Positions 6,601 to 64,000 of a stretch of DNA of 64,000 nt are shown here, piece by piece (position 1 is the stretch's first letter; every line of letters begins with the position of its first letter). Location: NCBI RefSeq assembly GCF_964204645.1, contig NC_134030.1:13448656-13512655 (forward strand), in the 5' to 3' direction. The notes under the pieces are model-generated. The model saw only the letters and a list, made by a program, of their open reading frames with translations. It ran no database searches and was not told the DNA's origin. The translations under genes were made by a program, and so were the position numbers. This DNA is from Tubulanus polymorphus (Eukaryota > Animalia > Nemertea).

Positions 6601-7360
6601 CTACGTCTGTCCGCAATGCATTGATGAGGGACTATCGCCGGAGATGATTTCCAACAATTCAACAAAGGTGGCGATGCAATTTGAGCGTGTGAGATCACTT
6701 CAAGCCCGTCTTTCTTCCTCTCGACAGGAACTCACCAGTGTTTTCACACAAGTGAAATCACTGATGGGCCCCTGCGAGACGGCACTTAACCGAGTGCTTG
6801 AAGATGATCTCCATGTTCAGAGACAGGCATACCATTCTATGTGTTTTGTTGGGAATCATATTCGACGGATGTTCCTCATCAATGACAAAGTGGACGCCCC
6901 TGCAAAGCTGCTGTCTGTGGTTAAAGATCAAACAAATGATTACGATCATTTGTATGATCTTTACGCCACATTCAGCAAGATCCATCACTTTTTAAATGCA
7001 GCTTAGATTTTTGTCACCTCTCGAAATAGAACACATGTGCAAGTTGTGTCATGAATTCGGTGAAAAGTTCCCGCACACTTTCCCAATCAAACCATCACTC
7101 CAAAAATCCACGTCCTTGTCTTCGAGGTTCCTCCATTCCTCCGAAGGTGGAAATCCATTGGTATCTTTTCTGAGCAGGGTCTCGAAGGCAAGCATAATTC
7201 CGTAAATGCAGATGTGATTTCCTTCTGCAGATTTCGAAACACAACGAAGCGAGCGGCACTTATATTCAATTCTCAACACCTTCGGAGTTTTTCTTTGCCA
7301 ATCAGCTCAAACGGGAAAGTTGCAGTAAATTCGATCCGAAACATGATGCATCTTATCTGA
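3675..7360 (+). pseudogene. Spliced Chapaev/RAG1-like DDE transposase with an internal PHD finger, disrupted
   Basis: Predicted exons 3675-3750, 3850-3927 and 4645-7360 with compatible GT-AG phases. Motifs: WIKFGADKGG (D 5689), GDYCWLCNAMGHIGASGAFPCLWC (D 5919), PPLHLS*G, RQAYHSMCFVGNH, TPKIHVL, SEQGLEGKH (E ~7172-7186). Frameshifts near 5467, 5730, 6475, 7003 and 7083; stop at 6237. Confidence 0.8.
4660..4885 (+). repeat. Coding minisatellite (30-36 bp units) inside the transposase exon
   Basis: Repeated ATCAACGAATCACCAATCAGC(A/T)AATT, translating to STNHQSANYNFIG-like units. Confidence 0.85.
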
Positions 7361-11482: not shown

Positions 11483-14400
11483 TAATATAACTTATGACTA
11501 TAGTGTCAATATGTGCTTTAAGGTCGTAATCAACATGTGACATTACTCAATATGTTTTCACAATAATTAGCTCAGTCAGTGCTCATCGATAATTAATTAA
11601 TGTCTCTCAAACATGTCACTAGGTGTTTGTTTGTGAGTCCTGATGTCTACAACTTGTCTGACACCTAGTTCTCACATTATACTCATGATTCTGTATATAA
11701 AGACTATGTAAAGCTATGATAATTATTCTCATTCCGGGATGCAATAAAGATTGTACATATAAGGTTTAACTGCCTTGTTGTTCCTGATGGATGGAATCCT
11801 GTACCGCTAGTGTAAATGCTAGTTCCCCAGCCAGCCTGCCGATACAATGACCACCCGGTTACAGAGAGAATAAAACGACTAAGATCATTGTATGTTAGTT
11901 TTACAATAAAACTTTTATTCCTTTAATTAACCATTTGATCGTTCACAATTTTACCAGTTTACAGGTTATGGTACATCTGAAAACAGGGGTCAACGCACAA
12001 GGCTGGATTAGTGGGACATGCGTTACACATGTATCCTGTTTCTCGTCGAATGTTGTTATTATAGCAGACAAAGTTACCAAGAAGACTACATATGATAGCT
12101 TGACGAAATTTCAGCAATGTCATTCTGTCATCAGCTTGACAATAATCATGATACAAGATATAGGCATTCAGAAGGAAAATCTCAAGCATGTGTGTGCCAA
12201 TTTTTTATACCACCGTGCAGTTTTTCTGAGGGCTGTATAGTAGGAGAGCATCTGATCGGCTCTATCGATTCCAGACATTCCATTGTTGTAGTCGCGGACA
12301 ATGTTTGGCTTGTTTGCAATTTTGCCGTTTTGATTTGTAACTGGGACCATTTCTACACGGTGCATATTTGAAATAGTAAGGACGTCCCGTTTATCTTTCC
12401 ATTTAGAAACTACAACTGATTGCGATCTTAGCCAATGATGCTCGCCTTTCTTTAGCTTTTTCTTCACAACATCCTTGGGATTTTCCTTCCTATCAAAACG
12501 CAGTGTACCACATAAATAGGTTGATCTGTCAGTCATTTTTTTTGCCAAACTGACAGAGTTGTAAAAATTATCAGTAAAAACCACATGTCCGTGGTCAAGG
12601 AATCTTTCCATGAGGTCAAGAACTACAGCAGCAGCCTGTCCAAGACTGGCGGGATCTGGAACCTGGATGCCGCTGTATATACGAACTCTCGAAATGAGTC
12701 CACATGACTCACAAAGTTCATATAACTTGATGCCATATTTGTGGCGTTTGTTTTTTATATACTGGCGGAAAACCAGCCTACCGCGCCAAAGAACCATTGA
12801 TCCATCAATACTTAGTTCTTTTTTGGGGTAGTAAATATTGTCCATTATATTGGCAAAATGATCCAAAATTGGCCATATCTTATACAAGCGATCGTCTATT
12901 GCTGATTGTTATCTACAAAATGCCAGAATCGCAGAAGTAATTGAAAGCGATTACGAGGCATAACTTTGCCAAATATTGGAATATTGTAAAGCCCACTCTT
13001 ACTCCAATAATGTTCTAATGTGGGCATTGTAACGGGGCCCATATGCATGAGTAGACCGATAAATAGCTTCATCTCTTTGGCGTCGGTAGGCTTCCAAGCT
13101 TTCAGTCTTGATTCTCTCCTCATTGGCCGATTTACGTTGATAACACCTCTAGCGTATCTGTTTGTCTCTCTGACCATCAAATCTATCAGATCTTGGTTGA
13201 GGAACATCTCAAAGTAGTCATTTGGTTTTCCATCTAGTGGGGGATTTATGAGTCCTGGATTTTGATTGAAGGCAAAATTGGTAGCATCTTCCGGCACATT
13301 TGTCCACTGGTGGACTCTTGCTTGTGGTCCAGCTGGGCGACCAGGCTGAGCAGCACGTTGGGCGGCCGGATTCTGACGACCAACTCGACCCCGACAGATA
13401 TGTCCAGCTGTTACACCAGCTCGGGCGATTATGGCACCATCTCTCAGACACTTTCTGGGGCCTCTAGTTCCTGGGTTTTGGGGATACTGTCCCACCTCTC
13501 AGTCCTCTCACCGCACCTCTTACTCGACCTCTTGGGCACCCACGGGCTTGCGATGTTCCTCCTCTTGTACGGACTCCTCCACCTCTTGTAGGGACTCCTG
13601 TGCCGCGAACTCGGGGTCCTGGTACCAAATTATCTTCACTCATCGGGACCATCTGACTCATCAGAATCTGAACTTTCTCCTGAGTCTTCCAGGACTGATG
13701 ATCCCAGTTGGGATTCATTGCCAGTAGTGACATTACCAGTACCATTATCATCACCAGCATCCGAGCTTTCGGATCCAACATCGTCGTCGGAGTCTGTCGT
13801 ATGCTCCGATGCAGAATTCATCAGCATATCAGTCACTTGCGATGCCGTCAGCCACGCCATTTTGTAATGGGCATGTGTGTCTAGGATTTATATGGGTCTC
13901 ATTTACCTTAGAAACAATAGTAGGCTTTATATTTACTACATTGTTCGATCTCTGTTAAAAAAGCCATGACGAGATAACTCGTCACTGGCAACGGGGACAG
14001 GAAAAATAAGAGAATCTCTTCACTATTGCCAGTGACGAGTTATCTCGTCGGTTTTTTATACTAAAATACATCAGTGTAATGATTTATCAATGTACAAATA
14101 GCGCTGGCAGCATATAAACTGTATAATGTAAAAAATTAGCATTGGCAATGGCGACCGGACTCAACCGCTAGCGGTGGCAGCGAGCGTGTTAATTGGCTTA
14201 GCCGCAGAACTCAGCAAAATGTTCACGTGAATCCCCGGTATTGTCTACTGTTTTACTTTAAGATTTTAAATTGTATTTCAAGATCGATTCCTGTGAAATC
14301 TTTAGTTCATATGGTTTATGGGAGGAATATTTATATTTGCACTACAGAATACTCAAATTGAAAATTATGCAAAGTCCGGGGAAAATAGCTTTTTCTCAAA

Positions 14401-26400: not shown

Positions 26401-29400
26401 TTAATTCTCTATTCTGTATTAATAAACTGTGTGATTTCTGATTTCTAAATTTTTGACTATCAATTTATATTATATATTCATGTAATTCATCCATTCATGA
26501 TGAATGAATATTTTCTATACATATATTTATATTTTCTATAATATTACATATTTTCTATTCTAAATCTATAAAATGATGATTTTGGCGAACTTTAGGTTTG
26601 CCTATGCAAACGGTCTGATGAAGCAGTTTTCATTGAAAATGAATAGAGTACCGGTGTGTCAACAAGGCACAAACATTGGCTATTGAACCAATAGCATTGA
26701 TTTTTGGTGTCATGGTTTGGCTTAATGAGTTCTTAAGCCCACAAAAATTTCATAGTGATCGAGTTATTTTTAGGGGACTTATTCTTGAAAAACACGCAAA
26801 AACCCAGATTTTTAGCACTAAGTCATGGCACGTTTTTACATATGACAATTTGCATGCCTGGAATTGAAATATATAAAAGTTCAATCCTTCCTGGAAGTGT
26901 CGCCGTTTTTAGTTCGACTGATCTCAATGTACTTTTCAACCTACAGGCCTTAAGTCCAGTGGGCTATTGCGTTCACTTTTCGTTGGTCGTCCGTCGTAGC
27001 GTCCGTCCGTCCGTCCGTCTGTAGATGGAATCCAGTTATTTTAGGAAGTTTTGAAGACGCTTCAAGGTAATGTCTTGATATTTGGTTCAAATATGTATCT
27101 ACCCTAGACACATCTTCAGCCCAAAAACTGGCCCTGTCAGATTCAAGATGGCTGACTGGCAGCCATTGTTGTTCGCCAAATTCAGCACTTTTTACACATT
27201 TTTTAACTTTTTGAGGGAAATTTTGATGACGCTTACGGTAAATCAATTAACTTGATCTTTCGTATGATTTTTGAATCCCCTAAGGGCCTATCACCTCAAG
27301 AAAAATTGGGTCGATCGGACTCAAGATGGCCGTCCTATGACCTTTTTAATACTCAAAAATGTAAATTATGGCCCGAATTCTGAGTCCTGTAGTTTCCTAC
27401 TGGTTGGCCATTTCTCATTGCAATTTGTGATGGGTATTCTTTGAAAATGGATCTTTTATACCTGAGACAGGTATTTTTGATCAGGCAATTATGACGTAAT
27501 TGGCGGCCATCTTGGTGTCATCAGCACTCATTCGTAGGTGGAAAAAGGTTTTCCCACATTATATTGATACTTAAGCATATTTTGTTACCACAATCAATGG
27601 GGTTCATTTCGATTTAACTAATTTTCCATCATCTGATTGCTCTAGAAATGGAAATTTCTCATCGGCATCGATTTTATCTGCATCTTGACCGTTGTAAGGA
27701 CATTTCACTTCGATTATCCTGGAAGCATCGTTAACTCCATCAGGTGTTGCACCTAGAATTGGAATGTCCGGTCTAATATAAATCCCACAGGATCGGACGT
27801 GAACATTGCAGCACTTCTCAAATTCTTTTATGGCTGTTGATTCAAATTGTTTGCCGTGAATAGTTGCCGCAGTTTCAAAACTCCAGGTTAAAGAAATCAA
27901 ACTTTTGCTAAGTTTTTGCTTATCATGCCTTTCCGTAATTTTGTAAATTTCCGAATCTTGATGCGGTAATACGCCATTGACGGAGTTCAAACCATGTCGA
28001 ACATTCACTCTGTTCCCTAGTGTCCATTTCCATAGCTACGGCTTGTTCGCTTGTAACCTAAGATTAGAAAATTAGATTTTGTCATACAAATATTTACTAC
28101 AATATACCTCATTAAAAAAGTATTTTTTCCTGGAACTTCTAAAAATATGTATATATTTTTAGATGTTCTTTTACCCATTACTCGGTGAAAGGTCTCTCTA
28201 AGTAATCGTGGTCATGTAGAGCAGCTCCCATGTCCGCTGAATCGAATAAATATATCATGGGGAGATCTTTCGATGTCTTATTACAGTAGTTCATTACCAA
28301 ACCACGTACATGATCTGGATATCCAGGTCTCTTTCTAAATTCTAGTGGTCGTGGGTCGTCTAAATTTGCTGCTCTGTTGCAGGGCAAGTCTTCTGCCTTT
28401 TTTGGAGTACCGCTACCTAAAATGATAAAAAGTTTTGTAAGATTGAAGGATAATATATCTAGCCTGTTCAGTCAACCATCGTTTACATTGGTGATTAAGG
28501 ATTATAGAGTATGACATGGCCATCTGACTCCTGAACTAATTCATAACAAAAATGTAAACAAAGGTTTAGTAATTACATACCTTCATGTTACTTTCTGGGA
28601 CAATGGAAAGACTGCAAAGTTTCTGTGCATGATTTTCCAACCTGAAGTTTTCCATCTTGGGAAAAAGTGGCAATCATCAACAGCACAGTCCTAATGTGTT
28701 TACATGTCAAATGCGGACCATTTCCTGCAGGGCATTCACAGTCACTGTTTAAAATCTCACCATTAGATCTCACTTTAAACTTGTAAGAATATGAAACCTA
28801 AAAAAAAATGGGAAAACATTTGCTTGATAAGTTTAATACATGGTCTTCATTTTTCATTCAATTTTTGTAGGCTTACAGCCTTTATTTTACACTGAATTAG
28901 AAATAATAACTTTTTTCTTCATTGCCGCTCTGACGATTCCAGTGAAAAAGCATATGTTCGCTGTTTTTAAAAAGCTGCAGCATCTATACGGTTTGAATCT
29001 AAAAGCTGTCTGGCTTTCTCCATTGCTTTGGAGTCCTTTGACATCTCTTTATCCGTGGCCATTCGAAATTTAAAGTACCCTCTGATGTGATCTTCTGTGA
29101 TGCTTGGGAGTATTGCCTCGATGTTGTGGGCATAGTTGTCCAAATCCTGTTACATCATCTGGCCATTCTGGTAAAAGTTCTCTGGTGATGCTGTCATTTT
29201 GAAAATAACTATTTCTGTCATAAGCCTCTAACCTGAAAAGAACATCAAATATCTTTAGTTTGTAAGCTTCATCTATTAGACTAGATAGTGCTGCCACCAC
29301 AAATATCAATGCTCCCTTCTAGGATTTACAGGAAATATGTTAATGAACGGTAGCCGGGATGTTTGAAGAAGTGAATAACATGTGTGTCTTAATTACCCGG

Positions 29401-44400: not shown

Positions 44401-46647
44401 TGGGTTTCAAGGCCTGATAGTGTATTTGTAAGCCAGGGGTCATTGAATATAGATTCCGTAGGACTAAAATTGCATTACAACTCATTTTTAGACCAATTGC
44501 CCAAAATATTGGGAACATTTATTTGTGAATATGTCGTATTGAATTCTAGGAGAAACCACTGGTATCGGATGCTGCCCGACGCAAAGAACGGGAGATGGTT
44601 CAACGTGAAATTGATAAACTGCGAGTAAGCATTCAAACACTGACACGTAGTGCAAACCCACTTGGTAAAATCATGGACTATGTTCAAGAGGACCTTGACT
44701 CAATGCAGAAAGAACTGCAGAAATGGAAAATGGAGAATAAAGACCATCTTTTAGCTTTAAAGCAAGAACAAAGGTATGTTTATCTGTACATCAGCAATGT
44801 GGGGCTGTAGATTTTGACCCATAAGATGTATAGGTCATCCAAGATGGCTACCACATTCATTTTGATGAGTAATATAGCCAATTTGAGCTTGTTCCCATTC
44901 TACGGTCTACAGTTTCAGACAAGTTTTCTTGTTACTTGATCTTTGGTTTTATGATGGAAGGAGGATGAGTGCTATTGGTTTTGAAATGTATAGTTCACCC
45001 CAGATGGCCACCACAGCGATTTAGCCCACTTGGGACTTCAGTCCCAAGGGGGCTATTGCGTTCAATTTTCGTCCGTCTTCGTCAGACAGGTATTTTTGAT
45101 CAGCCATTTATGGCGCAATTGGCGGCTATCTTGAATTTCCTTATTAGATTGGTACCTAGGCATATTTTGTTACCATGATCAATTGCAAAGTTGTAGCTCA
45201 TTACATGCTCTATGATTGTGGTGAGTTTCAATTTAATTGGGTTTTGCATATGGTTACCAGGGGGCGTTGAATAGTAGAATAACGTAGTATTTCCAGATTA
45301 GATTGGTAAAGAGGCATATTTTGTTATCACAATCAATTAAAAAATCATAGCTGCTGATATGTTCTATGATTGTGGTGAGTTTCAAGGTCATTGGTTTTTG
45401 TATATGGTCATCAGGGGGCGTTGAATATTGAAATTGTTAGATTGTTGAGCATTTGAAACCACTTCCCAAGTGGGCATGGTGTCCCTGGACCCCTAGTTTT
45501 GTCACTTGGTACAATGTGGATTGAAGGTGTAAGGAGGATTACCTCTACTGTTTTTGATGTTGGTAGGTCATCCAAGATAGCTGCAACAGTTATGTGGCTG
45601 TTTTGAATAGCCAATTTTGAGCTTGTTACTAAGGTGTAGAGTTTGGACTGATTTTCTTCACATTTGAACTGTGGATATATGATGGGAGGAGGATGGGCCC
45701 CATCATTTTTGACATAGGCCTATGTAGGTCATCTAAAGCAACCTAATTTCTTTATGTTTAATTTTGTTTCTCAATCCTGCTCTACAATCTATAGTTTTTT
45801 TTACTGATTTTCGTATGACTTGGTATGTGTATAAAAGGCAGGAAGAGGATAATTCCTATTATTTTTTATACACAGCTTTTTATGAATCAAGTTGCAAGGA
45901 GATTGTTATTGCCTGTGTCAATCTCTCCCCAATTATGTTCCCATTCTTCAGAATGCAGTCTGGGACTTTCGTTTAAGGAATGTCCTTATGTGATCCGTTT
46001 GTCGATTGATAACGCCACTTCAGATTTAGTGATAGACATTTAAGGTCGTTTGGAAGCCAATTAGTTAGAAATTTTTTGAAATTTCACATTAGAAAGGGTG
46101 TCTCTAAGTTGGGGATTAAATCTGGTCGAAATTTAAGCTTAGTTTTTGTTGTGCCTTATCAGAAAATGCTCTCCAAGCCATCACACTTCACATTTTGCCC
46201 ATGATATAGGTGATAGTGATTGACAGAAGTACCATTCTAAAAAAATATACTTTGTCCAAAGCAAACAGAAAATCATGGTTTTCCAATGAAGGGGTATGGA
46301 TTATTGAAATTGTTGGATCCTCAATTATTCCAGTACCACTTTACAAGTGGCATGGTCTCCCTGGACCCCTACTATTTGAGTGGATTTTGCTGCTTGTAGA
46401 AATTGCCTCATTTGTATGCTGAATACAATCCGCATCAAAATTCGTTGATCTTTAATCTGTTAATAGTTGATAAATTCTTTATTTTTACAGTATTACAGAT
46501 AATTCCGTTGAGCCATTGAAAGCGCAGTTGAAAGATTTGGACCAAACTATCAGTGATCAGTTCATCCAGATCGCAGCCGTCAAAGCTAAAATTCTAAGAA
46601 ACGATGAAAAAATCAACAAGATGTTGGGCAGCATAACAAAATCCTGA
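9750..46647 (+). CDS. TRAF3IP1: TRAF3IP1/IFT54 (MIP-T3), last ten coding exons: 9750-9971, 14527-14625, 15800-15887, 16986-17018, 19437-19542, 23767-23856, 34309-34441, 39005-39130, 44550-44773, 46491-46647. The 5' exons (CH domain) were not found in this window.
   Basis: Every exon has AG/GT boundaries with compatible phases; total 1278 nt = 425 aa plus TGA. Peptides match IFT54: a charged R/D/E/K tract, [51 protein letters not shown], and the C-terminal coiled coil [36 protein letters not shown]...[14 protein letters not shown]...[15 protein letters not shown]. Confidence 0.93.
10251..10779. repeat. Tandem duplication of about 267 bp
   Basis: CTGTACAATGACGTA.AAGGGCTAAGTA begins at 10251 and 10518; both copies end GAAATACGATTCCC. 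Confidence 0.9.
11438..11487. repeat. (TAA)n microsatellite
   Basis: About 16 TAA units. Confidence 0.95.
11959..13860 (-). pseudogene. piggyBac (PGBD4-like) transposase pseudogene
   Basis: Acidic N-terminus, [67 protein letters not shown], and a C-terminal Cys-rich [20 protein letters not shown]. Stop at 12896 and frameshifts. Confidence 0.92.
14527..14625 (+). CDS. TRAF3IP1: TRAF3IP1 exon
   Basis: ttccag|CAT...GAG|gtact; [19 protein letters not shown]...IEE, phase 0/0. Confidence 0.7.
15800..15887 (+). CDS. TRAF3IP1: TRAF3IP1 exon
   Basis: tttag|GGA...GAAG|gtaatt; contains [13 protein letters not shown]. Confidence 0.8.
16986..17018 (+). CDS. TRAF3IP1: TRAF3IP1 candidate 33-nt microexon
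   Basis: tgtag|GTCGC...GAAG|gtaag; symmetric phase 1/1, [11 protein letters not shown]; not required to keep the frame. Confidence 0.5.
19437..19542 (+). CDS. TRAF3IP1: TRAF3IP1 exon
   Basis: polypyrimidine-gcag|AT...TC|gtaagt; phase 1 to 2, which is needed to join the neighbouring exons. Confidence 0.8.
19621..20230. mobile_element. Tc1/mariner-pogo (Tc2-like) MITE
   Basis: TA|CCGTATTTTCCGGTGTACAAGTCGA ... TCGACTTATACACCAGAAAATACGG|TA; internal repeats of GGTGTATAAGTCGA. Confidence 0.85.
20897..22040 (+). mobile_element. Internally deleted hAT-like element with a 6-bp TSD
   Basis: TIRs CACACCTGCCAAC / GTTGGCAGGTCTG; TSD TGAAAA. Transposase remnants: BED-finger-like [23 protein letters not shown] and [20 protein letters not shown]...FKCGRTKAT. 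Confidence 0.8.
23767..23856 (+). CDS. TRAF3IP1: TRAF3IP1 exon
   Basis: ttgcag|G...AG|gtaagc; [19 protein letters not shown]. Confidence 0.9.
23902..24169. mobile_element. Penelope-like inverted pseudo-LTR insertion
   Basis: Inverted arms of about 115 bp (23937-24050 and 24061-24172), flanked by the direct repeat TATGTAGATTAA (23890-23901 and 24170-24181); each arm carries a CTGATGA..GAAAC-type motif. Confidence 0.75.
24062..24105 (+). ncRNA. Minimal type I hammerhead ribozyme motif (mirror copy on the - strand at about 24008-24049)
   Basis: CGC-CTGATGA-T-GGCT(loop)AGCC-GAAAC-GTT-GCG: conserved core, stem II GGCT/AGCC, palindromic AACGTT stem III and a short stem I. Confidence 0.65.
25256..26132 (+). 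mobile_element. Helentron/DINE-like non-autonomous family C (related copies ~10840-14460, ~34480-34870, ~48530-49960, ~50895-51400)
   Basis: 5' TAGGCCAGCC and 3' GGCTGGCC sub-TIR followed by the hairpin GTGCC(A/C)C..GGGGC(A/T)C and T-rich ends; no TSD. Confidence 0.6.
26946..30258 (+). mobile_element. Helentron/DINE-like family B copy interrupted by an ISL2EU-like insert
   Basis: Collinear with 32635-33850; (GTCC)n near the 5' end; ~150-bp internal tandem units; 3' AAGTGGGCATGGTGTCCCTGGACCCCTAGTT. Confidence 0.7.
27599..29633 (-). mobile_element. ISL2EU/Harbinger-like fragment carrying a spliced SAP-SWIM-YqaJ gene
   Basis: Ends AT|GGGGTTC ... GAGCCCC|AT; the host repeat resumes on both sides. 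SAP domain [27 protein letters not shown] (ATG 29569), [19 protein letters not shown], and lambda-exonuclease/YqaJ motifs HGKQFE...LGATPDG...IEVKCPY. Confidence 0.75.
31134..32152. mobile_element. Tc1/mariner-type MITE with long TIRs
   Basis: TA|CGGGATATCGACAAATTCAAGTTCTGGAATTTCTCGTTTGATGGCGCT ... AGCGCCATCAAACGAGTAATTCAAGAATTTGAATTTGTCGATATCCCG|TA. Confidence 0.85.
32635..33850 (+). mobile_element. Helentron/DINE-like family B (also ~45020-45500 and a diverged copy from ~51465)
   Basis: 5' TTAGCCCACTT sub-TIR, (GTCC)n microsatellite, tandem ~150-bp units, and 3' GTGGGCAT + GGTGTCC.TGGACCCC hairpin + TAGTT. Confidence 0.7.
34309..34441 (+). CDS. TRAF3IP1: TRAF3IP1 exon
   Basis: ttatag|G...CTT|gtaagt; [32 protein letters not shown]. 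Confidence 0.9.
35042..36187 (+). mobile_element. Helentron-like family A, copy 1
   Basis: 5' TTTACCTTTG / 3' CAAGGTAAA sub-TIR, then the palindrome TTGCC(C/A)..GGGCAA and TTTATT; three near-complete copies lie within 6 kb. Confidence 0.7.
36917..38875. mobile_element. pogo/Tigger-like MITE containing a nested family A copy
   Basis: TA|CGGTGGAACCTTGTTCTAACGA ... TCGTTAGTACGAGGTTGCACTG|TA. Confidence 0.7.
37328..38455 (+). mobile_element. Helentron-like family A, copy 2
   Basis: Collinear with 35042-36187. Confidence 0.75.
39005..39130 (+). CDS. TRAF3IP1: TRAF3IP1 exon
   Basis: ttcag|GCG...GTG|gtaagt; [18 protein letters not shown]. Confidence 0.92.
39260..41604 (+). mobile_element. Second hAT-like element with a 6-bp TSD, containing a nested family A copy
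   Basis: ATATCA|CAGGGTTCGT ... ATGAAACCTG|ATATCA; subterminal GCAGTAA repeats at both ends; BED-like remnant [14 protein letters not shown] at about 39785-39830. Confidence 0.7.
40185..41274 (+). mobile_element. Helentron-like family A, copy 3
   Basis: Collinear with copies 1 and 2; inserted in a T-rich tract; ends TTGCCCATGGGCAATTTATT. Confidence 0.75.
41719..42721 (+). mobile_element. Non-autonomous piggyBac
   Basis: TTAA|CCCTGACAATACCAC ... GTGGTATTGAAAGGG|TTAA; remnant of an acidic transposase N-terminus ([29 protein letters not shown]) at about 41870-42020. Confidence 0.85.
44550..44773 (+). CDS. TRAF3IP1: TRAF3IP1 exon (coiled coil)
   Basis: ttctag|GAG...AG|gtatgt; [30 protein letters not shown]. 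Confidence 0.95.
46491..46647 (+). CDS. TRAF3IP1: TRAF3IP1 terminal coding exon
   Basis: tttttacag|T...TCC TGA; [23 protein letters not shown]...KMLGSITKS*. Confidence 0.93.
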
Positions 46648-53570: not shown

Positions 53571-55376
53571 TTAGTAAAATTTTTCTACAAGGGGGGCCCT
53601 TAGAGCTGAATACTTTGGGCACTCCATCACAAAATGTACCTCAGTTTCTACTGTATCACATAGGGAACACTTCCTGTCTACACGTGGGATGTTAAAATGT
53701 CTCCCCCTTTCTATCATTAGTGGGTGGGCACTTAGCCTGAGACGTGTAAGGGCCATTCTATAGTTCCTGTGCATGTCGAGTAGTAGGTATGGTTCCATTT
53801 GGAATCCTGTTTTTACCAATCTAAACAACTCTAATTTGTTTGAATTTCCTATCAGATGATTCCAGTATATTTTAAACCTCTCCTGCATTATGTGCCTTAA
53901 CCTTATTATTGTTGATTTAGAGATGTCAGAGTTTTCTATGTACAACGATTCATGGCTAATATATGAGAGTAGAATATATATAAAGTGATTCCATTCTACT
54001 TGTTTCCATGGCAGTTCCTTAACACTTTCGTAAATTGCATTTACTAAAGTACCATTTGAGCCCTTCATATGTTGCCAGAAATTGATAATTCTAATATAGG
54101 CTTCGATGTAAAGCGGGTACTTCCCCATTTCCCCTAAAACTGCCATATTAGTGGCTTTCCTATTTACCCCTAAAATGAATTTACAAAACTTGGTAAGCAA
54201 TTTGTGAATATGTGTTTCTTTCATGAGGGTTGATTCTAGGCAGAACTGGTTGTTTTTCGCTATTCTTTTGGCAAGTGTTGTAGAGGGCAGCCATATCTCG
54301 CAACCGTATAATAAGATTGGGCTGACAAGAGTGTCAAATAGGTATAATGCCGTGTTTGGCTTACAGTTTTGTACCCCGATCATTTTCTGGATTGACAACA
54401 TTGCCCTGTTGGCAGATGCAAAAAGGTTCTCTTTGGCTTTCTGGAATTTACCATTCAATGAAAATATAAGGCCAAGGTATTTGTATTCTTTGACCAACTC
54501 GAGGTATGAGTTTCCAAGTGAAAAGTTCAAATTGATAGGTATATTTCCTTTTTTACTGAACACTACTACTTTGCTCTTATCAGTATTGATTTCAAGTTTC
54601 CATTTTTTACAATATAGATCTAGCCTTTCAAGACATTTCTGGAGTCCTTCTGGGGAGTTGGACACTAGCACGAGGTCATCGGCGTATAAGAGACAGCTAA
54701 GTAAGTTGTCGCCGATTTCTACAGGATCACAGTTAACATCGAAACAATTAACAATATCATTAATATACAGGTTAAAAAGAAGCGGACTTAAAATGTTTCC
54801 CTGCTGTACACCTATTGAAGACTTATATACATCTGACATCTGATACTCATTCACCTTGAGACACCAAGTCATTCTATTGTACACGCTTTGTAAAATAGTC
54901 ATGATGTGTTTTCCAAGTTCATAATTCTTTAATTTATGTATAAGACCAGCATGCCACACTGAATCGAAGGCTTTACGAAGATCGATGAAGCAGGTGTATA
55001 AGTCTTTAAATGATGCCAGTTTTTTATCGATCATTTGCTTCAGTACGTACATGTGGTCAGTAGTTCTGGAGCCTGGCATGAAACCTATTTGGTTTTTTTC
55101 AATTAGATTATGTTTTTTGACAAAATTTTTCAATCTATTGTTTATGACTAGTGAGAACAAGTTGCCTAGGCAGTTATTCAGTGTTATCCCCCTGAAATTA
55201 TCGGGGTCATTTCTATCTCCCTTCTTGTGTATTGGTACGATAAGACCGTTCGCCCATTGTTTTGGAAAAACGCCGCTTGTGTACACTAAGTTGAAGAGCT
55301 TCGTAATGGGCCTTAATATTGTTTCTCTACCATATTTGAGTAGCTCGTTTGTTATTCCATCCAAACCAGGGGCCTT
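53571..55376 (-). pseudogene. LINE ORF2 reverse transcriptase and C-terminal Cys/His domain
   Basis: KAPGLDG, NFRGITL, FIDLRKAFDSV, GVQQGNILSPLLFNLYI, LLYADDL, YKYLG, CSLCDTVETEVHFVMEC. Confidence 0.95.
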
Positions 55377-56355
55377 AATTATCGAAATAGTCTAGCACCT
55401 TGACCTCACTTCTGAGATTTCTAAATTGTTTGTTGTTCAAAGTGTTTAGCTTGTGGTCAGAAGTAAGACCCCCATTAACAGCGTTACGTGTATCATCAGT
55501 TTCTATGCGTATGCCATATCCAATTGGGCAATGATCGGACAATTCTGAGAGGACGTTATGTACATGAAAATATTCAACCCGATTATTGAGTTCCTCATTT
55601 ACAATACTAAGGTCTACTACGCTGCTTCCGTTCCACTGGTGACAGGTGAACTCACCAAAATAATCACCACTTGTTCTACCATTAAGTATAACCATATTAT
55701 TTGATTTACATAAGTCAATAACCTGCCTCCCTGCTGTATTACAAACCATATCCTTGCTTTTTCTTTGGGGGATAGCTAACTCGTGTAGGGTGGGTACTCC
55801 CTCTCCAAGTTGTGGTATAAATGCAATATCATGAGGGTCAATCCCGGGAGAAACATCGAGTAATTTACTAGTTCGGGCATTTAGATCGCCCATAATGACT
55901 ATGTCCCCGAGTGACAGATATTTAGTACAACCATTTTCTAGTAATTGAAATGTTTCATCTGAGTTTTTTGAGCCAAATGATGAGTTTTTTGGGCTTAGAT
56001 AGCTTGCACCAAGAAAAATTGGCTTCTTGTTCGGTGAATTAGATGTGATTTTAAGCCAGATTAACTCGGATGTGGCAATTTCAATTACTTTGACATTACA
56101 TATGTTTGAGACGCTGGTCTTACACAGTATAACAATTCCCCCAAAATTTCGTTTAGCATTTTTGCTGATCGCTCTAGTAACATGAGTTGTGGAGTAACCA
56201 GGAACATGGATATTGTATTCATCAGATGTGTGAGTTTCGAGAAGACATACTATATCATAGCGATTTATGATAGAAACGAAGAGCTCGTCTTGTAACTTGT
56301 TGACGTGCTTCGAGAATAGACTGTTAATGTTCCAGCAGCATATGTTCAGAGTCAT
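55375..56355 (-). pseudogene. LINE ORF2 APE endonuclease part
   Basis: CWNINSL, CLLETH, MGDLNART, SVVDL, SDHCPI; out of frame with the RT part and the linker looks shortened. Confidence 0.9.
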
Positions 56356-56362
56356 TGCCAGT

Positions 56363-56992
56363 TTAGTATTTTCTATTTCTGGTGAAGAGGTTTAGCGCAC
56401 GGCGGACTGAGGTACACAGGTTTCTCGCAAATTGTCTTAAGCCACTTGAATAATCGATGTGGACGTGGTCCCTAAAAAATCTGCGGTTGTCGTGGCGACA
56501 GATTGTTACATTATTGTCCGATGCGGCAAGAGATTCTATGGTCGCGTTAAGGAGTCTGCTCTGCGCAGCCCAGATGCAATCGTCGAATCGCGGTGGTACC
56601 TGCGAGATGACCAGTTGCGCATTCGGATAAGTCGATTTGGCGGTATTCACTAATTCTATCATTCTGTTGACGCACATTTCCGCATTGCCTAAGTTCTTGA
56701 TATCGTTCGTTCCAACGTGAAGTATAACACACGAGGGTTGACGGTGATCATTATTTCTCACGCAATTTATAGCCTCGGTAATCGTAAAGGCCGTGATCTT
56801 TGACGCATAGCAAGAGTCAGCCACAAACTTATCGCAATCCAGCGCTCGGGTGTTCGAATCCCCGATGATCAGAACCTCTCCCGTCTTTTTTCGGTTGGAT
56901 ACGCCGGGATATGATCTGACACTGTTGCTTACATGGTAGTAATTAGAAAAGTAGGCTTTCAGATCAGAGGGCGAGAGGGCGAGACACCCCAC
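56363..56992 (-). CDS. LINE ORF1 C-terminal SGNH/GDSL esterase domain (partial)
   Basis: IIGDSN (block I), LHVGTNDI (block III), RDHVH (block V). Confidence 0.85.
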   Translation of the reverse strand: MGCLALSPSDLKAYFSNYYHVSNSVRSYPGVSNRKKTGEVLIIGDSNTRALDCDKFVADSCYASKITAFTITEAINCVRNNDHRQPSCVILHVGTNDIKNLGNAEMCVNRMIELVNTAKSTYPNAQLVISQVPPRFDDCIWAAQSRLLNATIESLAASDNNVTICRHDNRRFFRDHVHIDYSSGLRQFARNLCTSVRRALNLFTRNRKY

Positions 56993-57005: not shown

Positions 57006-57027
57006 AAATTTTTTTCCCTTATAAATG
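57006..57027 (+). promoter_or_regulatory. Candidate viral promoter/initiator motif ending in TAAATG
   Basis: AAATTTTTTTCCCTTATAAATG; near-identical AAATTTTTCCTTAATAAATG at 63321-63340 (-); related AATTTTTTTATGTTATAAATAATG at 63371-63394. Confidence 0.5.
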
Positions 57028-60000
57028 GGGGAGAATGAACACCAACCAGAAAACAATAATGTCATTAAAAATCAATATTATTGTCAATATTGTAAAAAAT
57101 ACATCGATACATCTCATAAAACACGACATGAAAAAACTGCAAATCATATAAAAAATGTAATAGATTTTGAAACTCCAGAAAATTCTAATGAAAGAAAAGA
57201 AAGATTAGAAAATATGAATGTGGATGAAATAAAATGCGAAGTTTGTAATGAATTTATAGTAAAAAGGAATTATAATAGACATCTCGAATCACAAAAACAC
57301 CACCAAAATTTGAGTAATAATGTTTTAGGAAAAGATTATTTTGACGATAAACCTCAAAAAGTAAAAAAACCAAATTCAAAAACTAAATCCATTTCAAATA
57401 AACCTTACATGGAAAATGTTAGAAATTATATTGATTCACTAGAAATAAAAGATACAATTGAAATTTTAGAAACATTACATAGTAAAATTGGTCCTGCAGC
57501 TATTATATTTAGATTTTTTAAAGGTACAACAATAGAAGATTATAGTAAATTTAATGAAATAATAGAAAAAATACTAGATTTGATAACAGATGTTGAATAT
57601 CCAAAAATTAGTATCTCTGGGAAAGTAAGTTTTATAAAGTCAGAAGAAAAAATGGATTATAATATTCAAACACTCTCTGAAGAAATAATTTCAAAAACAC
57701 AAATAAAAGAGAAGTTAGAAAAAATATTTAATGAATTTAAACGTCATATTGAAGAAAGATATTTTGAGGGTTCTGGCTTAACATTGAATGAAATAATATA
57801 TTTAGATTTAAATGTTTATAATACAAAAAGAAATAAAACATCAAAAAGTAATAAAATGTTTAAAAATGATTCAAACTTTACAACAGAAAAGGATATTAAA
57901 GCATCATCTTATATTAAATTACCATTTATAACAAAAGCAGTAATAAATATTCAAAATGAAGATAATAAATGTTTTCTATGGTCAATTATTTGTTGCTTAC
58001 ATCCAACACAGGAAAATGTTTGTAGAATAACAGATTATCGGAAATATGAAACATTATATAAAATTGATCAATATCCAGTAACTATAAAAATGATTCCTAA
58101 AATAGAAAAAGTTAATAATTTAAAAATAAATGTATTCGAATTAATGCAATTACCAAAGACAAAAGGTGAAAATATTAAAGATTATACATTGGAAGCTTTA
58201 TATTTAACAGAATATTATGATGATGAAAATGCTATAGATTTGTTATATTACAAAAAAGATGAAAATGAACATTATATGTGGTTAAAACAAATTGATTTAT
58301 TCTTTAGAACAGAAAGTGATCATCATAATAAAATTTATCTATGTAGAAAATGTTTATCTAAATTTATGACTGAGAATACATTATTAAAACATAAAGAATT
58401 ATGTGATAATAAAGATTTTTGTAAATTAATAATGCCAACAGAAAAAGATTATAAATTGAAATTTACTAATCATAAATTTAAAAATATTGTTCCATTTGTA
58501 ATTTATGGGGATTTTGAATCGTTGAATAAAGAATTAACTGATCAAGATAGAAAAGAAATATATAACAAAAAACAATTATTAAAATCAATGGATAAAGGAA
58601 ATGAATTAAATGAAGACACAATACAAGACCCACCAATTATAAATACAATTAAAAAAGTTCATCAAAGAGCTGCTGTTTATGGAATTTATATAAAATCAAA
58701 TTATCCCGAATTATATGAAAGTCAATATATTTCTTTTAGAGGTGAAAATGTAGTTAATGATTTTTGTGATAAAATGATTGAATTAGAAAGTGATTTTGCA
58801 AAATTATTAAACAAAAATAAAAGAATAGTTATGACAAAAGAAGATGAAATTGATTTTAATTATGCAACTCATTGTTGTTACTGTGAAAAACGTTTTTATT
58901 CATTTGATAAAAAAGTTAGAGATCATAATCATTTAAATTCAAAATATCGTGGAGCTGCTCATGAAGATTGTAATTTACAAGCTAAGAAAGTTAATTTCGT
59001 ACCAATATTATTTCATAATTTATCAGGATATGATACCCATCTATTTATAAAACAATTATCAAAGAAATTGGGTGCAATTAATCAAGAAATAGAAGAATAT
59101 AATGTTATAAATGGTATAAATGTAAGAAAATATGATTTTAAACTATTAGCTAAAACATCTGAAAATTATATTTCATTTCAATTTGGTTGCATTAGATTTT
59201 TAGATTCTTATAGATTTCTAGCAAGTTCATTAGATAATTTATCAAAAAGTTTAGTTGATAATGATTTTGTTATAACTCGATATTATTATCCAAATGAACA
59301 AGATTTTAAATTATTGAGATGTAAAGGCGCAATTCCTTATTCATTTTATAAAACACATGATGATTTTAATGTAACAGAATTATTAAAAGATCAATTTTAT
59401 GATCAATTAAAAAATGATTACGTGAAAGATGAAGTGTTTAATAGAACATTAAATATTTGGAACCATTTTAAGATGAAAAATCATGGCGAATTAGTTGATT
59501 TATATTTAAAATCAGATGTTTGATATTGGCTGACATATTTGAAAAATTTAGAGAAATTAATTTGAATCATTTTAATGTTGATCCTTGTTAATGCTACTCT
59601 AGTCCTGGTTTAACCTGGCAATGTGGTTTAAAATATACAAATGTAGAATTAGATTTATTAAAAGAACCAGATATGGTTTTATTATTTGAAAAATCAATTA
59701 GAGGTGGAATTAGTGGTGTTATGGGAGATAGGTATTTTAAAGCAAATGATGAATATAAATTATTATATATTGACGCCAATAATTTATATGGTTGGGCAAT
59801 GATGCAACCTCAACCACATAAAAATTTTATATTAACAGAAGTTGAAAATGGTGATAAAACTGATTGGGAAAACGCAATTGCGAGTTTAAAAGATGAAGCA
59901 CCAATTGGTTATTTCTTTGTAGTTGATTTAGAATATCCTGAAAATATAATGTTTAAAACAAGAAACTTACCTTATTGCCCAGAACATTTAACTGTAGATG

Positions 60001-62031
60001 ATAGTTATTTAAGTGAATACCAAAAGAAAATAAAACCGAAAGATCATGTTTTTACAGAAAAATTAATACTTACTCAAAATAATAAATACAATTATATTGT
60101 TCATTATAGAATGTTAAAATTTTATCTAAAACAAGGAATGAAATTAAAGAAAGTACATAGATATATTGAATTTAATCAATCGAAGTGGTTAGAAAAATAT
60201 ATAGATTTCAATACTCAACAGAGAACCATATCAAAAACAGATTTTGAAAAAGATTTTTTCAAATTGATGAACAATAGTTTTTATGGAAAAACATGTGAAA
60301 ATATTAGAAATAGAAATGATATTGAATTAGTAAATAATTCTGAAAGATTAAGACATTTACAATCAAGTCCTAGACATTTAGGAAATAAAAGGTTTGAAGA
60401 TTATTTAACCGCGGTAAAATTAAAAAGAACGTCCATGAAATTTAATAAACCAATATTTATAGGTTCAACTGTTTTAGAAATATCAAAATTATTAATGTAT
60501 GATTTTTATTATAATGTTTTGCAACCACTTTTTGGGGAAAAGCATATTGAAATATTATATTTTGATTCTGTAACAGCTGACACCCCAATATTATTAAAAT
60601 GTAATAATAAAATATTGGTAAGAAGAATTTCAGAAATAATTCCAAAACAAAATGAATGTTATATTTGATGGATGGAAAAAATTAAAGAATATTATTAGAC
60701 ATAAAACAAATAAGAAAATCTATAGAGTTAGAACTAAATTAGGATTTGTAGATGTTACAGAAGATCATAGTTTAATTAAACGAAATGGTGATGAAATAAA
60801 ACCAACTGATATAAAAATTGGAGATGAATTATTACATAAAAGATTTTTCCAAAGAATGAATCATATGTCATTTGATGAAATAATTGATAATATTTATAAT
60901 ATAGAACCCGAAACATTGGAAGAAAAAGAATATTTTATCAAAGGATTTTTCATGGGTGATGGTTCAGCAGGTGTGTATAATTATGTTTGGGGTAATAAAT
61001 ATTGTTGGTATTTATGCAATCAAGACTTAAAATTATTAGAAAGAATTAAGAAATTCTGTGAAGAAGTTTATTCATATAAAACATTTAGAATCATGGATCA
61101 TATGAAATCATCCGCGGTTTATAGAATATTTGTAAATAATCCTAAAGATTTTGCTACAAAATATAATGATGAATTCTATATTCATGCAATAGTGAAAAGT
61201 AATACTTCAACTAAAGACAAGATAGTTCCAGATTATGTATTGAATGCAAAAAATAATTTAAGAAAGTGGTTCTTCATTGGATTCTATGCCGCAGATCGTT
61301 CAAAAAGGTTCCAAAACCGCAAAACAATATCCTTTGCTCAAAAAGGAAAAGTTGCTATATCAGGATTGAATATATTATGCAGTTCATTAGGATTTAATAT
61401 GAATATAGAATTAATCAAATCTAAACCAAATTGTTTTAATTTAAGGCATGTAGAAAAAGAATTAACAGAAGAAGTTAAAGATTTATTTGAAATATATAAC
61501 CCAACTGACTATGTTTATGATTTATCAACAGATGACGGAACATTCAATTCTGGGTTCCCATTAATCCAAAAAAATACCGACAGTTACATACTAAAAATCA
61601 AGACAAATGATATAACAAAAGACTTAAAAACATTAAAACATTATTTTGATTTTAGCAATTATCCCAAAGATCATGAACTATTTAGCAATGATAATAAAAA
61701 GATTCCTGGTAAGTTTAAAGATGAATTAGGAGGTGATGAAATGATTGAATTTGTTGGGATAAGAAGTAAAATGTATAGTTACAGAACAAAAGATCATGAA
61801 GCTAAAAAGTTAAAAGGAATAACAAAACATGTGGTTGATAAACATATAGAATTTCAAGATTATATAAAGTGTTTATATAACTCAATTGTAATGAAACACA
61901 AAATGAATTGTTTAAGATCAGAAGATCACGAGATGTACATTGATGAAGTTGAAAAAACTAGTTTAAATCCATTTGATGATAAAAGGCATATTTCAGATGA
62001 TGGTATAAAAACATTACCTTATGGCTATTAA
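57025..62031 (+). pseudogene. polB: Protein-primed family B DNA polymerase (Polinton/adintovirus type) containing an intein; 3 lesions
   Basis: N-terminal C2H2 fingers; NEDNKCFLWSI; ExoI YGDFES; CCYC..VRDHNH..YRGAAHEDCN insert; ExoII FHNLSGYD; IRGGIS; motif A YIDANNLYGWAM; motif B KLMNNSFYGKT; motif C YFD/[intein]/TDS; RSKMYSY; DDKR..TLPYGY. Frameshift ~59521, stop 59589-59591, frameshift ~60655. Confidence 0.95.
60567..61575 (+). mobile_element. Intein with a LAGLIDADG homing endonuclease in PolB motif C
   Basis: Block A SVTADTPILL directly after YFD; block B VDVTEDHSL; LAGLIDADG motifs FIKGFFMGDGS and FFIGFYAADRS; blocks F/G YVYDLSTDDGTFNSGFPLIQKN followed by +1 Thr (TDS). Confidence 0.95.
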
Positions 62032-62801
62032 AACATAAAATCAATATCATCAAACTCGAAATCACTATTGTCTTCTTCATTTTCATATAATTGTTTAGGT
62101 TCTTCTTCTATTCCATTTTTTTCATTTAAATAAAGTTCTATCTTGTTCCACATTTCATCTCGCTCTCTTTGTTTCTTTTTGTTTGTTAATTCATCAAATA
62201 GAATTATAATATCAAGGTTTAAATAATTTACAATCTTATTTAAAAAGAATTCATAATTTATTGAATCTGTTATTCTATTTTCTAAATGATACATTAATAT
62301 TTGTTTGAATATTTTTTTTATATTTTCTATATCTTTTTCTGTTAATTTAGGTTTTTCATAATAATCGTTAAATAATAAATATAAATACATTTTCTTTTGT
62401 TTTGTGTTAAATGTTGATGGAATAATTGTTTTTATAATATCTTTTTTAGTTATTTCACCATTTTCATTTTCTATTATTTTCATTTCTTCAAGCCATTGCA
62501 TATATTCTGGTGTATGATCTTCTATAGAAAATGTTTTAAAAATTTCATCAAGATAATTTAATTTTGGATCTATGAGAAAATCTCTAGTTTTTTCTTCACC
62601 CCATAAATTCCTTTGCCATCCACAATCAACACAAAATAACACAGGACCTTCTTGTCTTAAGGTCGTATAATAACATTGTGGGCATTTTTGTTTATAAATT
62701 ATTGGTAATAGATCTTCATTAAGCTCTTGGTATTTTCTTACGTTTTCTTTATGTTTTATTGTTCTATTATGTAGATTTGAATTACTTGATGTAATAATCA
62801 A
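62028..62801 (-). CDS. Poxvirus VLTF3 (A2)-like late transcription factor
   Basis: Zn ribbon CPQC-x13-CVDCG; C-terminal SINYEFFLNKIVNYL...KQRERDEMWNKIELYL resembles the VLTF3 C-terminal signature. Start codon uncertain (TTG). Confidence 0.6.
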   Translation of the reverse strand: MIITSSNSNLHNRTIKHKENVRKYQELNEDLLPIIYKQKCPQCYYTTLRQEGPVLFCVDCGWQRNLWGEEKTRDFLIDPKLNYLDEIFKTFSIEDHTPEYMQWLEEMKIIENENGEITKKDIIKTIIPSTFNTKQKKMYLYLLFNDYYEKPKLTEKDIENIKKIFKQILMYHLENRITDSINYEFFLNKIVNYLNLDIIILFDELTNKKKQRERDEMWNKIELYLNEKNGIEEEPKQLYENEEDNSDFEFDDIDFMF

Positions 62802-62833
62802 TTTACAATATTTACAATAATATGTTTTTCTTG

Positions 62834-63323
62834 TTAATTCATTATATTGTTTTCTAACTTTTCAACTGTTTCTTCATTATCTGGTAACGTTTTTTCATAT
62901 TTTATTTTTTCTAATATATTATTTTTTCTTTCATTGAATTCAGTTTCAAATTTATTAGAAATTTTATCTATATGTACTTTACGAAATTGATGATTCTCCC
63001 AATCTTCTATATTTTCGGGGTTATATTTTATTTGACAAGGCTCACAGAAATGATCTTTTATTTTATCCTTATCATAGAATAAGAAAGGTCTTTTCCAAAT
63101 AATTTCAGGTTCAACTTCAACAGAATTATTATCAACATTAGCCATTGCACCATTAATTCTACACTTCTCTGAATGTTTTTTAACATAATTTCTTGAGAAT
63201 AATTTATTACAATTTGGGCAGTTTAGTTTAGGGGGTTTATAATTTTCTTCATGTTTTTTCATATGTCGAGCCATATTACTTTTACTTCGAAGTTCACCAC
63301 AAATTTCACATGCTATCTTCCAT
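62834..63323 (-). CDS. Small multi-zinc-finger (C2H2-like) viral protein, probable frameshift right after the ATG
   Basis: CEICGELRSKSNMARHMKKH, CPNCNKLFSRNYVKKHSEKC, CEPC..HQFRKVH; TAAATG at 63321-63326 (-). Confidence 0.65.
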
Positions 63324-63391
63324 TTATTAAGGAAAAATTTTATTAAAATTAATTTTTAGTGATGAGCGGTAATTTTTTTATGTTATAAATA

Positions 63392-64000
63392 ATGGTAGAA
63401 TTAAAAGAATACAGAATATTTGTTGATTCTAGAAAACTTACAAATTATAAATCACATTATTTACTAGTACAATTAGATAGAGAATTCAAGAATTGTGTAG
63501 ATTTAAAATTAGTTAATATAAGTTTATGTAATTCTTTTCATAATATATCGAATAAAAGTCTTGATCATTTAGCTTTTAAAATTCATGTTAGAAATTTGAA
63601 TAAATGGTTTCATCTTTATCTAAAACCAGGATTATATAATTTAGAAACATTAGCGCAAGAAATTAATAGAAGAGCTCGTTTAAAAATGGGTGCAGCTGCT
63701 AGATTTGAAATTAAATTTATCAAAAGTGATAGTTCGAATAAAATAAGAATAAAGTTAACTAATGAACAACATAGATTTCTAGTAAGAAAACCTTTAGCTA
63801 AACTGTTTGGAATTCTCCCGGATAGAGATTATTCAAGTATCGAAACTTATACAAATTTAATGACTTTTACACATTTTTATATTTATTGTAATTTAATCAA
63901 TCCTACAAAAACATTTGAAGCAACTAAAGATACAACATGTAATTCTAGTATAGTAAATATTTTACCATTAAAAAATGTTAAACAATTTGGAACGCAAATA
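63392..64000 (+). CDS. Penton/minor capsid protein-like (single jelly roll), partial; absent from the ORF track because it runs off the window
   Basis: 203 open codons: MVELKEYRIFVDSRK...LKLVNISLCNSFHNI...KPGLYNLETLAQEIN...LAKLFG...FYIYCNLI. The DS..., NSFxNI, GxY, LG and YIYC pattern matches Polinton-type pentons. Confidence 0.65.
   Translation, partial: MVELKEYRIFVDSRKLTNYKSHYLLVQLDREFKNCVDLKLVNISLCNSFHNISNKSLDHLAFKIHVRNLNKWFHLYLKPGLYNLETLAQEINRRARLKMGAAARFEIKFIKSDSSNKIRIKLTNEQHRFLVRKPLAKLFGILPDRDYSSIETYTNLMTFTHFYIYCNLINPTKTFEATKDTTCNSSIVNILPLKNVKQFGTQI

Follow-up and report, generated by a model that had tools for sequence, protein, structure and literature searches.

Can a homing intein of the kind carried by giant-virus DNA polymerases reside in the genome of an animal, and by what route could it have come there? 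The question is raised by a 64,000-nucleotide (nt) stretch of the ribbon worm Tubulanus polymorphus (RefSeq assembly GCF_964204645.1, contig NC_134030.1, positions 13,448,656 to 13,512,655 of the forward strand), below called the window, in which the gene for a Polinton-type protein-primed family B DNA polymerase (pPolB; PolB for the family) is interrupted inside its catalytic motif C. We assign a probability of about 0.8 to the following reading: the insert is a LAGLIDADG intein sitting in motif C of a Polinton pPolB of the ribbon worm, a giant-virus PolB was likely its one-time source, and it is predicted to home between copies.

The B-family polymerase gene extends over 57025-62031 of the + strand in three open pieces, with motif A (YIDANNLYG, at 59766) and motif B (KLMNNSFYGK, at 60261) both in place. 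Its motif C is split as YFD|TDS by a 1009-nt insert at 60567-61575: the YFD codons occupy 60558-60566, Ser1 of the insert follows directly at 60567, the insert ends with ...LIQKN at 61575, and TDS resumes from 61576. An earlier sequence-only reading of this DNA had described the split motif with an SVTADTP start, TEDH, two LAGLIDADG motifs, a YVYDL...KN end and Thr+1, and had placed it at the pol-c site; its coordinates proved exact on re-reading, and empty alleles with YFDTDS agree with the site assignment. Block A (60567-60599, SVTADTP...) shows the start common to pPolB and giant-virus homologs and provides the Ser at position 1, where class 1 inteins have Ser or Cys. Block B (60757-60768) carries the expected Thr-x-x-His as TEDH, in columns that are near-invariant across a 51-row alignment, and blocks F and G with Thr+1 (61510-61578, YVYDL from 61510), recognised from the sequence and the homolog alignment, close with the terminal Asn and the following Thr (KN|T, 61570-61578). 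Both helices expected of a LAGLIDADG (DOD) endonuclease are present, helix 1 at 60934-60963 (GFFMGDG, end at 60963; profile match and alignment) and helix 2 at about 61270-61299 (GFYAAD; alignment). All these features lie on the + strand.

Profile searches agree with this picture. The 3' piece of the intein matches Pfam Intein_splicing (E=1e-06; 29.1 bits, below the curated cut-off of 35.8) and LAGLIDADG_3 (E=6e-04; 20.5 bits, below the curated cut-off of 22.5), and its closest sequence match in the PDB is the archaeal PolB intein PI-PkoII (E=8e-04). The intact relatives P0002 and P0003 exceed both of these Pfam cut-offs, and endonuclease domains of relatives exceed those of PF14528 or PF05204 (P-numbers label database homologs, L-numbers loci in giant-virus metagenome-assembled genomes, MAGs). 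The insert is more than a chance resemblance: 164 homologs reach E<=0.001 beside the Pfam matches, and an unbroken YFDTDS stands in each of the four closest exteins. A single-sequence structural model of the window 3' piece was unusable, with a mean pLDDT (predicted score in the local distance difference test) of 32. We therefore turn to relative P0004, which is 49% identical over the intein, has the same Lys-Asn end and was folded with the 51-row alignment. In its model pLDDT is about 90 within the insert, with low values for the exteins; the stretch of residues 143-481, which is exactly the insert, aligns end to end with residues 1-537 of PI-PkoII with Z 27.9 and a root-mean-square deviation of 4.4 over 304 aligned residues. 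Comparison with other endonuclease-bearing inteins gave Z 22-27, and with mini-inteins Z 15-19. In a viral structure library, five of the first six matches of the P0004 model were PolBs of a phycodnavirus, pandoraviruses, Megavirus and a marseillevirus. A Hint fold bounded by the insert is thus predicted for the relative. Taken over the sequence, the Pfam/NCBIfam matches, 60 raw reads that skip the 1009 nt and the tree, the segment 60567-61575 belongs to the pol-c intein family in all testable features, except that it is out of frame here.

The frame break is one point where the earlier description needed correction. A frameshift had been proposed at about 60655; the break is real and lies near 60666 within the intein, which is consequently not in frame with both exteins in the window copy, but it is no plain one-base slip, the window intein (1009 nt) being some 18-20 codons shorter than its closest homolog (354 aa). 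Helix 2 deviates at one conserved position from all 11 aligned homologs, in each of which this helix is typical, and further upstream, at about 59520-59590, a frame change and stops interrupt the polymerase gene as well. The window copy is a dead relic, polymerase and intein both broken. In the database relatives P0001, P0002 and P0004 the intein is in frame with both exteins, and most family reads from the same species differ from the window at its lesion sites; therefore the lesions are specific to the window copy or to few copies. As a separate observation, contigs of the same species show further intein-internal deletions, at window positions 60577-60941, 61091-61215 and 61217-61569, which remove part of the endonuclease or splicing region and possibly belong to decaying copies.

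Judged by its relatives, the polymerase which holds the insert is a Polinton-type pPolB. Piece 1 (57025-59523, + strand, ending at the break) contains zinc fingers, candidate vOTU-like Cys/His motifs in the N-terminal region, picked by eye, exonuclease motifs and an HNH-like insert; it is 58-61% identical to P0171-P0173 across about 830 aa, and relatives match Endonuclease_7. Piece 2, the N-extein (59592-60566, + strand), which holds motif A, motif B and the initial half of motif C, is 87% identical to the intein-free P0169, and the C-extein (61576-62031, + strand; TDS..., SKMY) is 84% identical to the same protein. Of 7995 proteins scored in a search with the N-extein, 7777 fell at E<=1e-20, and the homolog details given here concern 120 listed matches. 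The closest exteins among them (P0169 and P0171-P0173; 87, 73, 72 and 71% identical) all have the unbroken motif, and an intein start was seen in 6 of the 120. The cut-off of PF03175 was passed by five of 11 scanned relatives, namely P0001 (59% identical to the window N-extein), P0002, P0131, P0141 and P0188, and PF00136 matched none of the 11. The three extein pieces compared with five giant-virus-type PolBs gave no significant match (best E=0.31), and PDB sequence searches with the exteins gave no link to any solved polymerase. The Polinton assignment of the sequence-only reading is upheld by these results, and the lack of a significant match to those five giant-virus-type PolBs speaks against the clustering with RNA-primed PolBs of Nucleocytoviricota which that reading had named as refuting it.

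Integration in the animal was followed in raw reads (X7) of the same species label, from a sample and a study other than those of the best-matching data sets, about 12% of the run being read. Matches in a marine metagenome (X5) and in organism B (X6) came to no more than short pieces and did not enter the analysis. Their depth is 7-10 on the single-copy flank 55670-56671 vs 334-503 over 57340-60345. The left end of the element (56938-56990) starts with AGT and is inserted in ORF1 of a long interspersed nuclear element (LINE); it is marked by a drop in GC, by a depth rising from about 7 to more than 400, and by 639 reads running from 56938 into mutually unlike flanks (agreement 0.37). An AG start is typical of Polintons. 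Disagreeing flanks are what many insertion sites would give; the family is present in tens of copies at many insertion sites, with a fixed end at 56938 as a Polinton should have. The host is fixed as nemertean by a TRAF3IP1/IFT54 gene of at least 8 exons (9735-46644, + strand; protein-to-window exon map), whose exon 44553-44774 is 100% identical to the NCBI-named TRAF3IP1 of the nemertean Tubulanus polymorphus and 88% identical to that of Lineus longissimus. Together, this exon, the interrupted LINE and the reads with unlike flanks confirm the animal host and the integration proposed from the sequence alone. Two contigs cross the junction of the window copy itself with 0 differences, but they extend no further than 30 and 28 letters into the element and possibly derive from the window's source study; integration of the family is well shown, that of the window copy slightly less so. 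The element may be a Maverick or an integrase-less Polinton-like virus; about 7 kb of it lies in the window, and its right end and any genes for integrase, packaging ATPase, protease and major capsid would fall beyond it.

Copies with and without the intein occur side by side in the same reads. At 80% likeness, X7 depth is 577-737 beside the intein and 139-263 within it, which gives an intein-bearing share of about 20-45% of copies, a lower bound if the inteins have diverged beyond the exteins. The exact 1009-nt skip is found in 60 reads at 37 starts, 23 further reads skip 1009 nt with other letters at the joint, and loose read ends at the two intein borders number 83 and 90. With P0169 and P0171-P0173 empty as well, the insert is a precise one, and the check for plus and minus alleles suggested earlier comes out positive within one species. 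Among database homologs, the P0002 cluster has contigs reaching 1.0 Mb; of its 136 members 40 were read, and the 15 listed comprise 7 with the intein, 6 without it and 2 fragments. The intein-bearing P0138 and the empty P0141 show 0 differences in 200 residues upstream and 150 downstream of the site. P0002 and the empty P0131 differ in 4 of the 10 residues before the site vs 9 of 1031 elsewhere (p=3e-6, for an interval picked post hoc), and also at +3, +4, +8 and +9; such crowding at the site is predicted by both flank co-conversion and escape of empty alleles. P0002 and P0246, both intein-bearing, differ at 48 of 200 upstream residues and at 0 of the 9 adjoining the intein, and it is at those 9 residues that P0002 differs from its own 99% identical empty siblings, a pattern that looks like flank co-conversion. 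Motif C is unusually variable among these pPolBs (e.g. P0185, P0187 and P0260): in the 111 of 120 listed hits that reach it we counted DTDS 39, DCDS 36, DTDA 15, DTDG 6, intein start 6 and other 9, and this variability may represent escape from the endonuclease. In the fragment P0287 the intein is followed by TDA, therefore TDA alone does not exclude an intein. Both endonuclease helices are retained in 8 of 8 aligned pPolB homologs.

From where, then, did the intein come? Its best homologs are inteins of other pPolBs, which fill the top 5 places and, altogether, 10 of the 120 listed places (63-40% identity for full-length matches); giant-virus-type PolB inteins of uncultured origin follow with 40-44% identity. 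A search of 1.84 billion representatives returned 1598 hits; among the 150 listed, nearly all those classifiable were of the RNA-primed PolB type, with one further pPolB fragment, the above-mentioned P0287 (73% identity). In a FastTree phylogeny of 192 rows, from which short or weakly matching inteins and three near-duplicates were left out, all 9 pPolB inteins formed one clade (0.954). In an IQ-TREE analysis of 49 hand-chosen rows (9 pPolB, 30 pol-c, 4 pol-b as outgroup, 3 topoisomerase and 3 other) this clade received 100/100 and lay within a 95/94 group holding 17 giant-virus-type inteins, among them P0016, 99.8% identical to the giant-virus MAG locus L002, and P0026, more than 99% identical to L007. 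A mixture model kept both the pPolB clade (100/99) and its nesting, and in a 43-row test 0 of 200 bootstrap trees held the giant-virus pol-c inteins together. Two long-branch inteins, P0081 and P0086, stood as sister to the pPolB clade in FastTree only; the placement was lost in IQ-TREE and was treated as an artefact. Intein scans supplied 37 and 80 loci, 104 of these 117 with a giant-virus-type PolB, and a scan of viral contigs with P0001 found no relative. Related Ser1 inteins were also noticed in type II topoisomerases (P0008, P0063, P0068, P0072, P0075 and P0080) at D-x-D|TDG, a site resembling polymerase motif C, and these group near the pol-c inteins.

The exteins follow another history. 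Their tree was made of 50 selected rows (18 plus, 32 empty), with 4 rows removed for being short or lacking the site; on it the intein state changes 10 times, and well-supported branches force at least 7 of these changes. The window extein is sister to the empty P0169; for the window intein the sister is the P0001 intein, and the P0001 extein lies among other empties. P0005 belongs to a very different pPolB class, with a strong PF03175 match (E=9e-32) and an extein without significant similarity to that of the window, yet its intein falls within the pPolB intein clade. The incongruence which the sequence-only reading had called for is therefore found, the intein grouping with giant-virus-type inteins, the exteins having no significant giant-virus PolB match and the intein being patchily spread over their tree. 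The transfer it had claimed, from a giant-virus PolB to this Polinton, is supported by the borderline nesting of the clade among giant-virus inteins; the jump did not take place in this lineage, whose nearest intein relatives are those of other pPolBs (64-43% identity), and for nesting and direction alike the approximately unbiased (AU) test stops at p=0.054. Probably there was one entry of the intein followed by spread among Polintons, because the nearest relatives are inteins of other pPolBs which form one old clade. A direction from giant virus to Polinton is favoured by the trees, though not formally shown.

Several points weigh against our reading. Under the AU test a tree uniting all giant-virus pol-c inteins narrowly escapes rejection (the p=0.054 just given), and the mixture model leaves the deep forks unstarred, therefore neither donor nor direction is proven. 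The patchy distribution of the intein alone cannot separate gain from loss, and the jump into the pPolB class of P0005 is favoured by the tree and unsupported by the AU test (p=0.239). An intein-bearing pPolB was present at 0 of the 117 fetched loci. The window pPolB pieces and their closest relatives P0169, P0171 and P0173 do not match PF03175, which fits the divergent Beta class described in the available text of Starrett et al. (2021, PMC8502044). The penultimate residue of the intein is Lys where His is usual, a Lys also found in many giant-virus-type inteins and in P0004 and P0005. Finally, the window copy is unable to encode a working protein, short reads cannot establish any single copy as intact throughout, and splicing and cutting are, for this clade, predictions from sequence.

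The rival explanations differ in how much of this they can accommodate. That the block at 57-64 kb is contamination or a chimeric join, from a protist or a free virus, with no animal intein at all, is extremely improbable. At about 57 kb the window does turn sharply from host DNA (GC about 0.36-0.41) to an AT-rich block (GC 0.22-0.25), and the junction contigs stay under a 31-letter rule and may share the window's source. These contigs nevertheless match the window without a difference, in the independent study of this species the family stands at tens of times single-copy depth with its end joined to unlike flanks in 639 reads, and the element interrupts a LINE ORF1 which continues into host DNA with a nemertean gene; these findings speak strongly against the contamination or chimeric join that the earlier reading had named among its refuting outcomes. 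The AU value leaves some room for a reverse or indirect direction, from Polinton-like elements to giant viruses or from an unsampled donor to both, as does the sister group of the pPolB clade, which is not settled in the IQ-TREE and mixture trees and different in FastTree. We consider this unlikely: the giant-virus-type pol-c inteins greatly exceed the pPolB ones in number and diversity (163 vs 9 rows in FastTree), and every one of 200 bootstrap trees makes them paraphyletic with respect to the pPolB clade.

A single entry into an ancestral Polinton pPolB, followed by vertical descent with many precise losses and no recent homing, would agree with one pPolB intein clade having a deep split, with the P0007/P0009 and P0002/P0003 groups that match on the intein and extein trees, with change counts that do not tell gain from loss, and with an AU test that does not reject the non-P0005 inteins together. 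It appears quite improbable to us, since it requires many exact losses, even between alleles otherwise 99-100% identical, and since differences crowded at the site are expected under co-conversion or escape; the intein of P0005 sits inside the clade in spite of its dissimilar extein, and the endonuclease helices have been kept throughout the aligned pPolB homologs. A more serious competitor, to which we give somewhat less than an even chance, confines homing to free Polinton genomes that replicate during a co-infection, either in the worm or, at an earlier stage, in a protist, and regards chromosomal copies as passive fossils. The window copy, broken at several places, is what such a fossil would look like, and inteins are common in viruses of eukaryotes and counted absent from animal nuclear genes. 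This explanation is in no conflict with the data and would alter the venue of homing, not the identity of the element; as to passive fossils, most family reads are without the breaks of the window copy, so decay is not general. Between chromosomal copies and free replicating genomes as the venue of homing we see about even odds.

The preferred reading, an intein of likely giant-virus origin predicted to home among Polinton copies, suggests the following course of events. Splicing chemistry of class 1 inteins and homing are both established processes. In unbroken copies Ser1 would be expected to form an ester with the aid of the TEDH block, Thr+1 would attack it, and the terminal Asn would cyclise; splicing would free the intein and restore YxDTDS, needed by the polymerase. 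With the catalytic motif interrupted by the insert, the polymerase can work only if the intein is spliced out or lost precisely. By analogy with known homing, intein-free pPolB genes would be cut in their motif C codons by the released endonuclease and converted when an intein-bearing copy served as the repair template, which would carry some flanking codons along. One jump from a giant-virus PolB and later spread among Polintons may thus have been followed by integration, which would carry the intein into the germline. We propose that the jump across classes was possible because motif C is the one short stretch still common to giant-virus PolB and pPolB. A far-reaching version, which we put forward tentatively and hold to be rather doubtful, is that the homing intein acts as a gene drive in an animal germline: it would convert chromosomal Polinton paralogs, move between distant pPolB classes and drive the normally fixed catalytic motif of empty copies into the DCDS, DTDA and DTDG escape variants, Polintons would be the route of giant-virus inteins into animals, and the rule of "no inteins in animals" would fail across several lineages.

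Compared with known systems, what is new here is the pPolB as intein host protein and the location in an animal genome; the pol-c family itself is known. According to the available text of Ogata et al. (2005, PMC549080), the mimivirus PolB intein lies at position III, the pol-c allele, measures 351 aa, close to the 333-354 aa of the pPolB clade, and has as its listed essential residues those also present here (Ser1, Thr/His of block B, terminal Asn and Thr+1). The present intein thus resembles those of mimivirus, compared by description, and other Nucleocytoviricota PolBs in its pol-c site, Ser1, block B Thr/His, terminal Asn, Thr+1 and LAGLIDADG endonuclease, and it differs from them in its host protein, a pPolB in a multicopy animal-integrated element; inteins in iridoviruses infecting animals are already known. 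The archaeal PI-PkoII (PDB 2cw7) is the best sequence match in the PDB and the best structural match of the relative's model, but it is only about 22% identical, much longer (537 aa) and of a cellular archaeal host. The 'adintoviruses' with Beta-type PolB, in what is available of PMC8502044, are likewise animal-integrated and multicopy, with an N-terminally extended pPolB and a weak or no PF03175 match; unlike for the present element, 'intein', 'LAGLIDADG' and 'homing' occur 0 times in that main text.

HNH and VSR nuclease domains within Polinton pPolB were reported by Jeong et al. (2023, PMC10748475), in whose available text 'intein' and 'Hint' have 0 occurrences, and one sentence in the available part of Krupovic et al. 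(2024, PMC11161782), citing that work, suggests that the pPolB nuclease inserts arose through intein invasions. These inserts resemble ours in placing a nuclease domain inside pPolB, and the window's own pPolB lineage has an HNH-like insert; ours differs by its full Hint splicing domain with LAGLIDADG, by splitting the catalytic motif and by its exact empty alleles. The virus-derived nuclear inteins of Anaeramoeba, as presented in the accessible text of PMC10710043, are also shared with Nucleocytoviricota, include DNA polymerases and show allelic and possibly non-allelic homing; they differ in their single-celled host and cellular genes, and 'Polinton', 'animal' and 'metazoa' occur 0 times there. 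The accessible portions of PMC12220804, PMC3671162 and PMC13768754 use 'intein' as general background only. A literature search by title and abstract found no paper describing a pPolB intein, InBase, Repbase, subscription journals and Polinton supplements being outside its scope, so that a prior mention is possible.

A 2018 intein survey gave inteins as absent from metazoan genomes, with 0 tabulated. Against that zero, the intein is carried here by a considerable fraction of the tens of copies integrated in a ribbon worm, side by side with precisely empty alleles; it resides in a viral element, not in a host gene, and the window copy is dead. One system thereby allows three questions to be addressed: can homing operate between the copies of a multicopy element in the germline of an animal, can inteins cross polymerase classes sharing only the catalytic motif, and do Polintons and giant viruses meet in one cell, a meeting which a shared intein would record? 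It bears as well on the one-sentence suggestion of intein invasion into Polinton polymerases (PMC11161782, in its available part).

The remaining part of the element carries two zinc-finger open reading frames (ORFs) of 277 and 173 aa on the - strand (62028-63355), both covered by the high read depth. An ORF that leaves the window (63389-64000, + strand) is a possible minor capsid (penton-like) gene and should be taken as a lead only: in the ESM Atlas it resembles viral clusters, in one of which 18% of the members carry Adeno_Penton_B, and the recognition value is below threshold. A length variant exists in the N-terminal zinc-finger region of the pPolB, where 47 raw reads skip 291 nt at 57106-57398. 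The LINE next to the element (53571-56937, - strand) has an ORF1 with a GDSL esterase and an ORF2, endonuclease and reverse transcriptase, in two frames. Elsewhere in the window, by eye, ORFs resembling piggyBac transposase lie within the host gene (12168-13887, - strand), and frameshifted ORFs with a PHD-like finger (4614-7360, + strand) have the look of a decayed DNA transposase, possibly RAG/Transib-like. ORF pieces at 27604-28471 (- strand), also noted by eye, resemble a YqaJ-like viral exonuclease, typical of some transposons.

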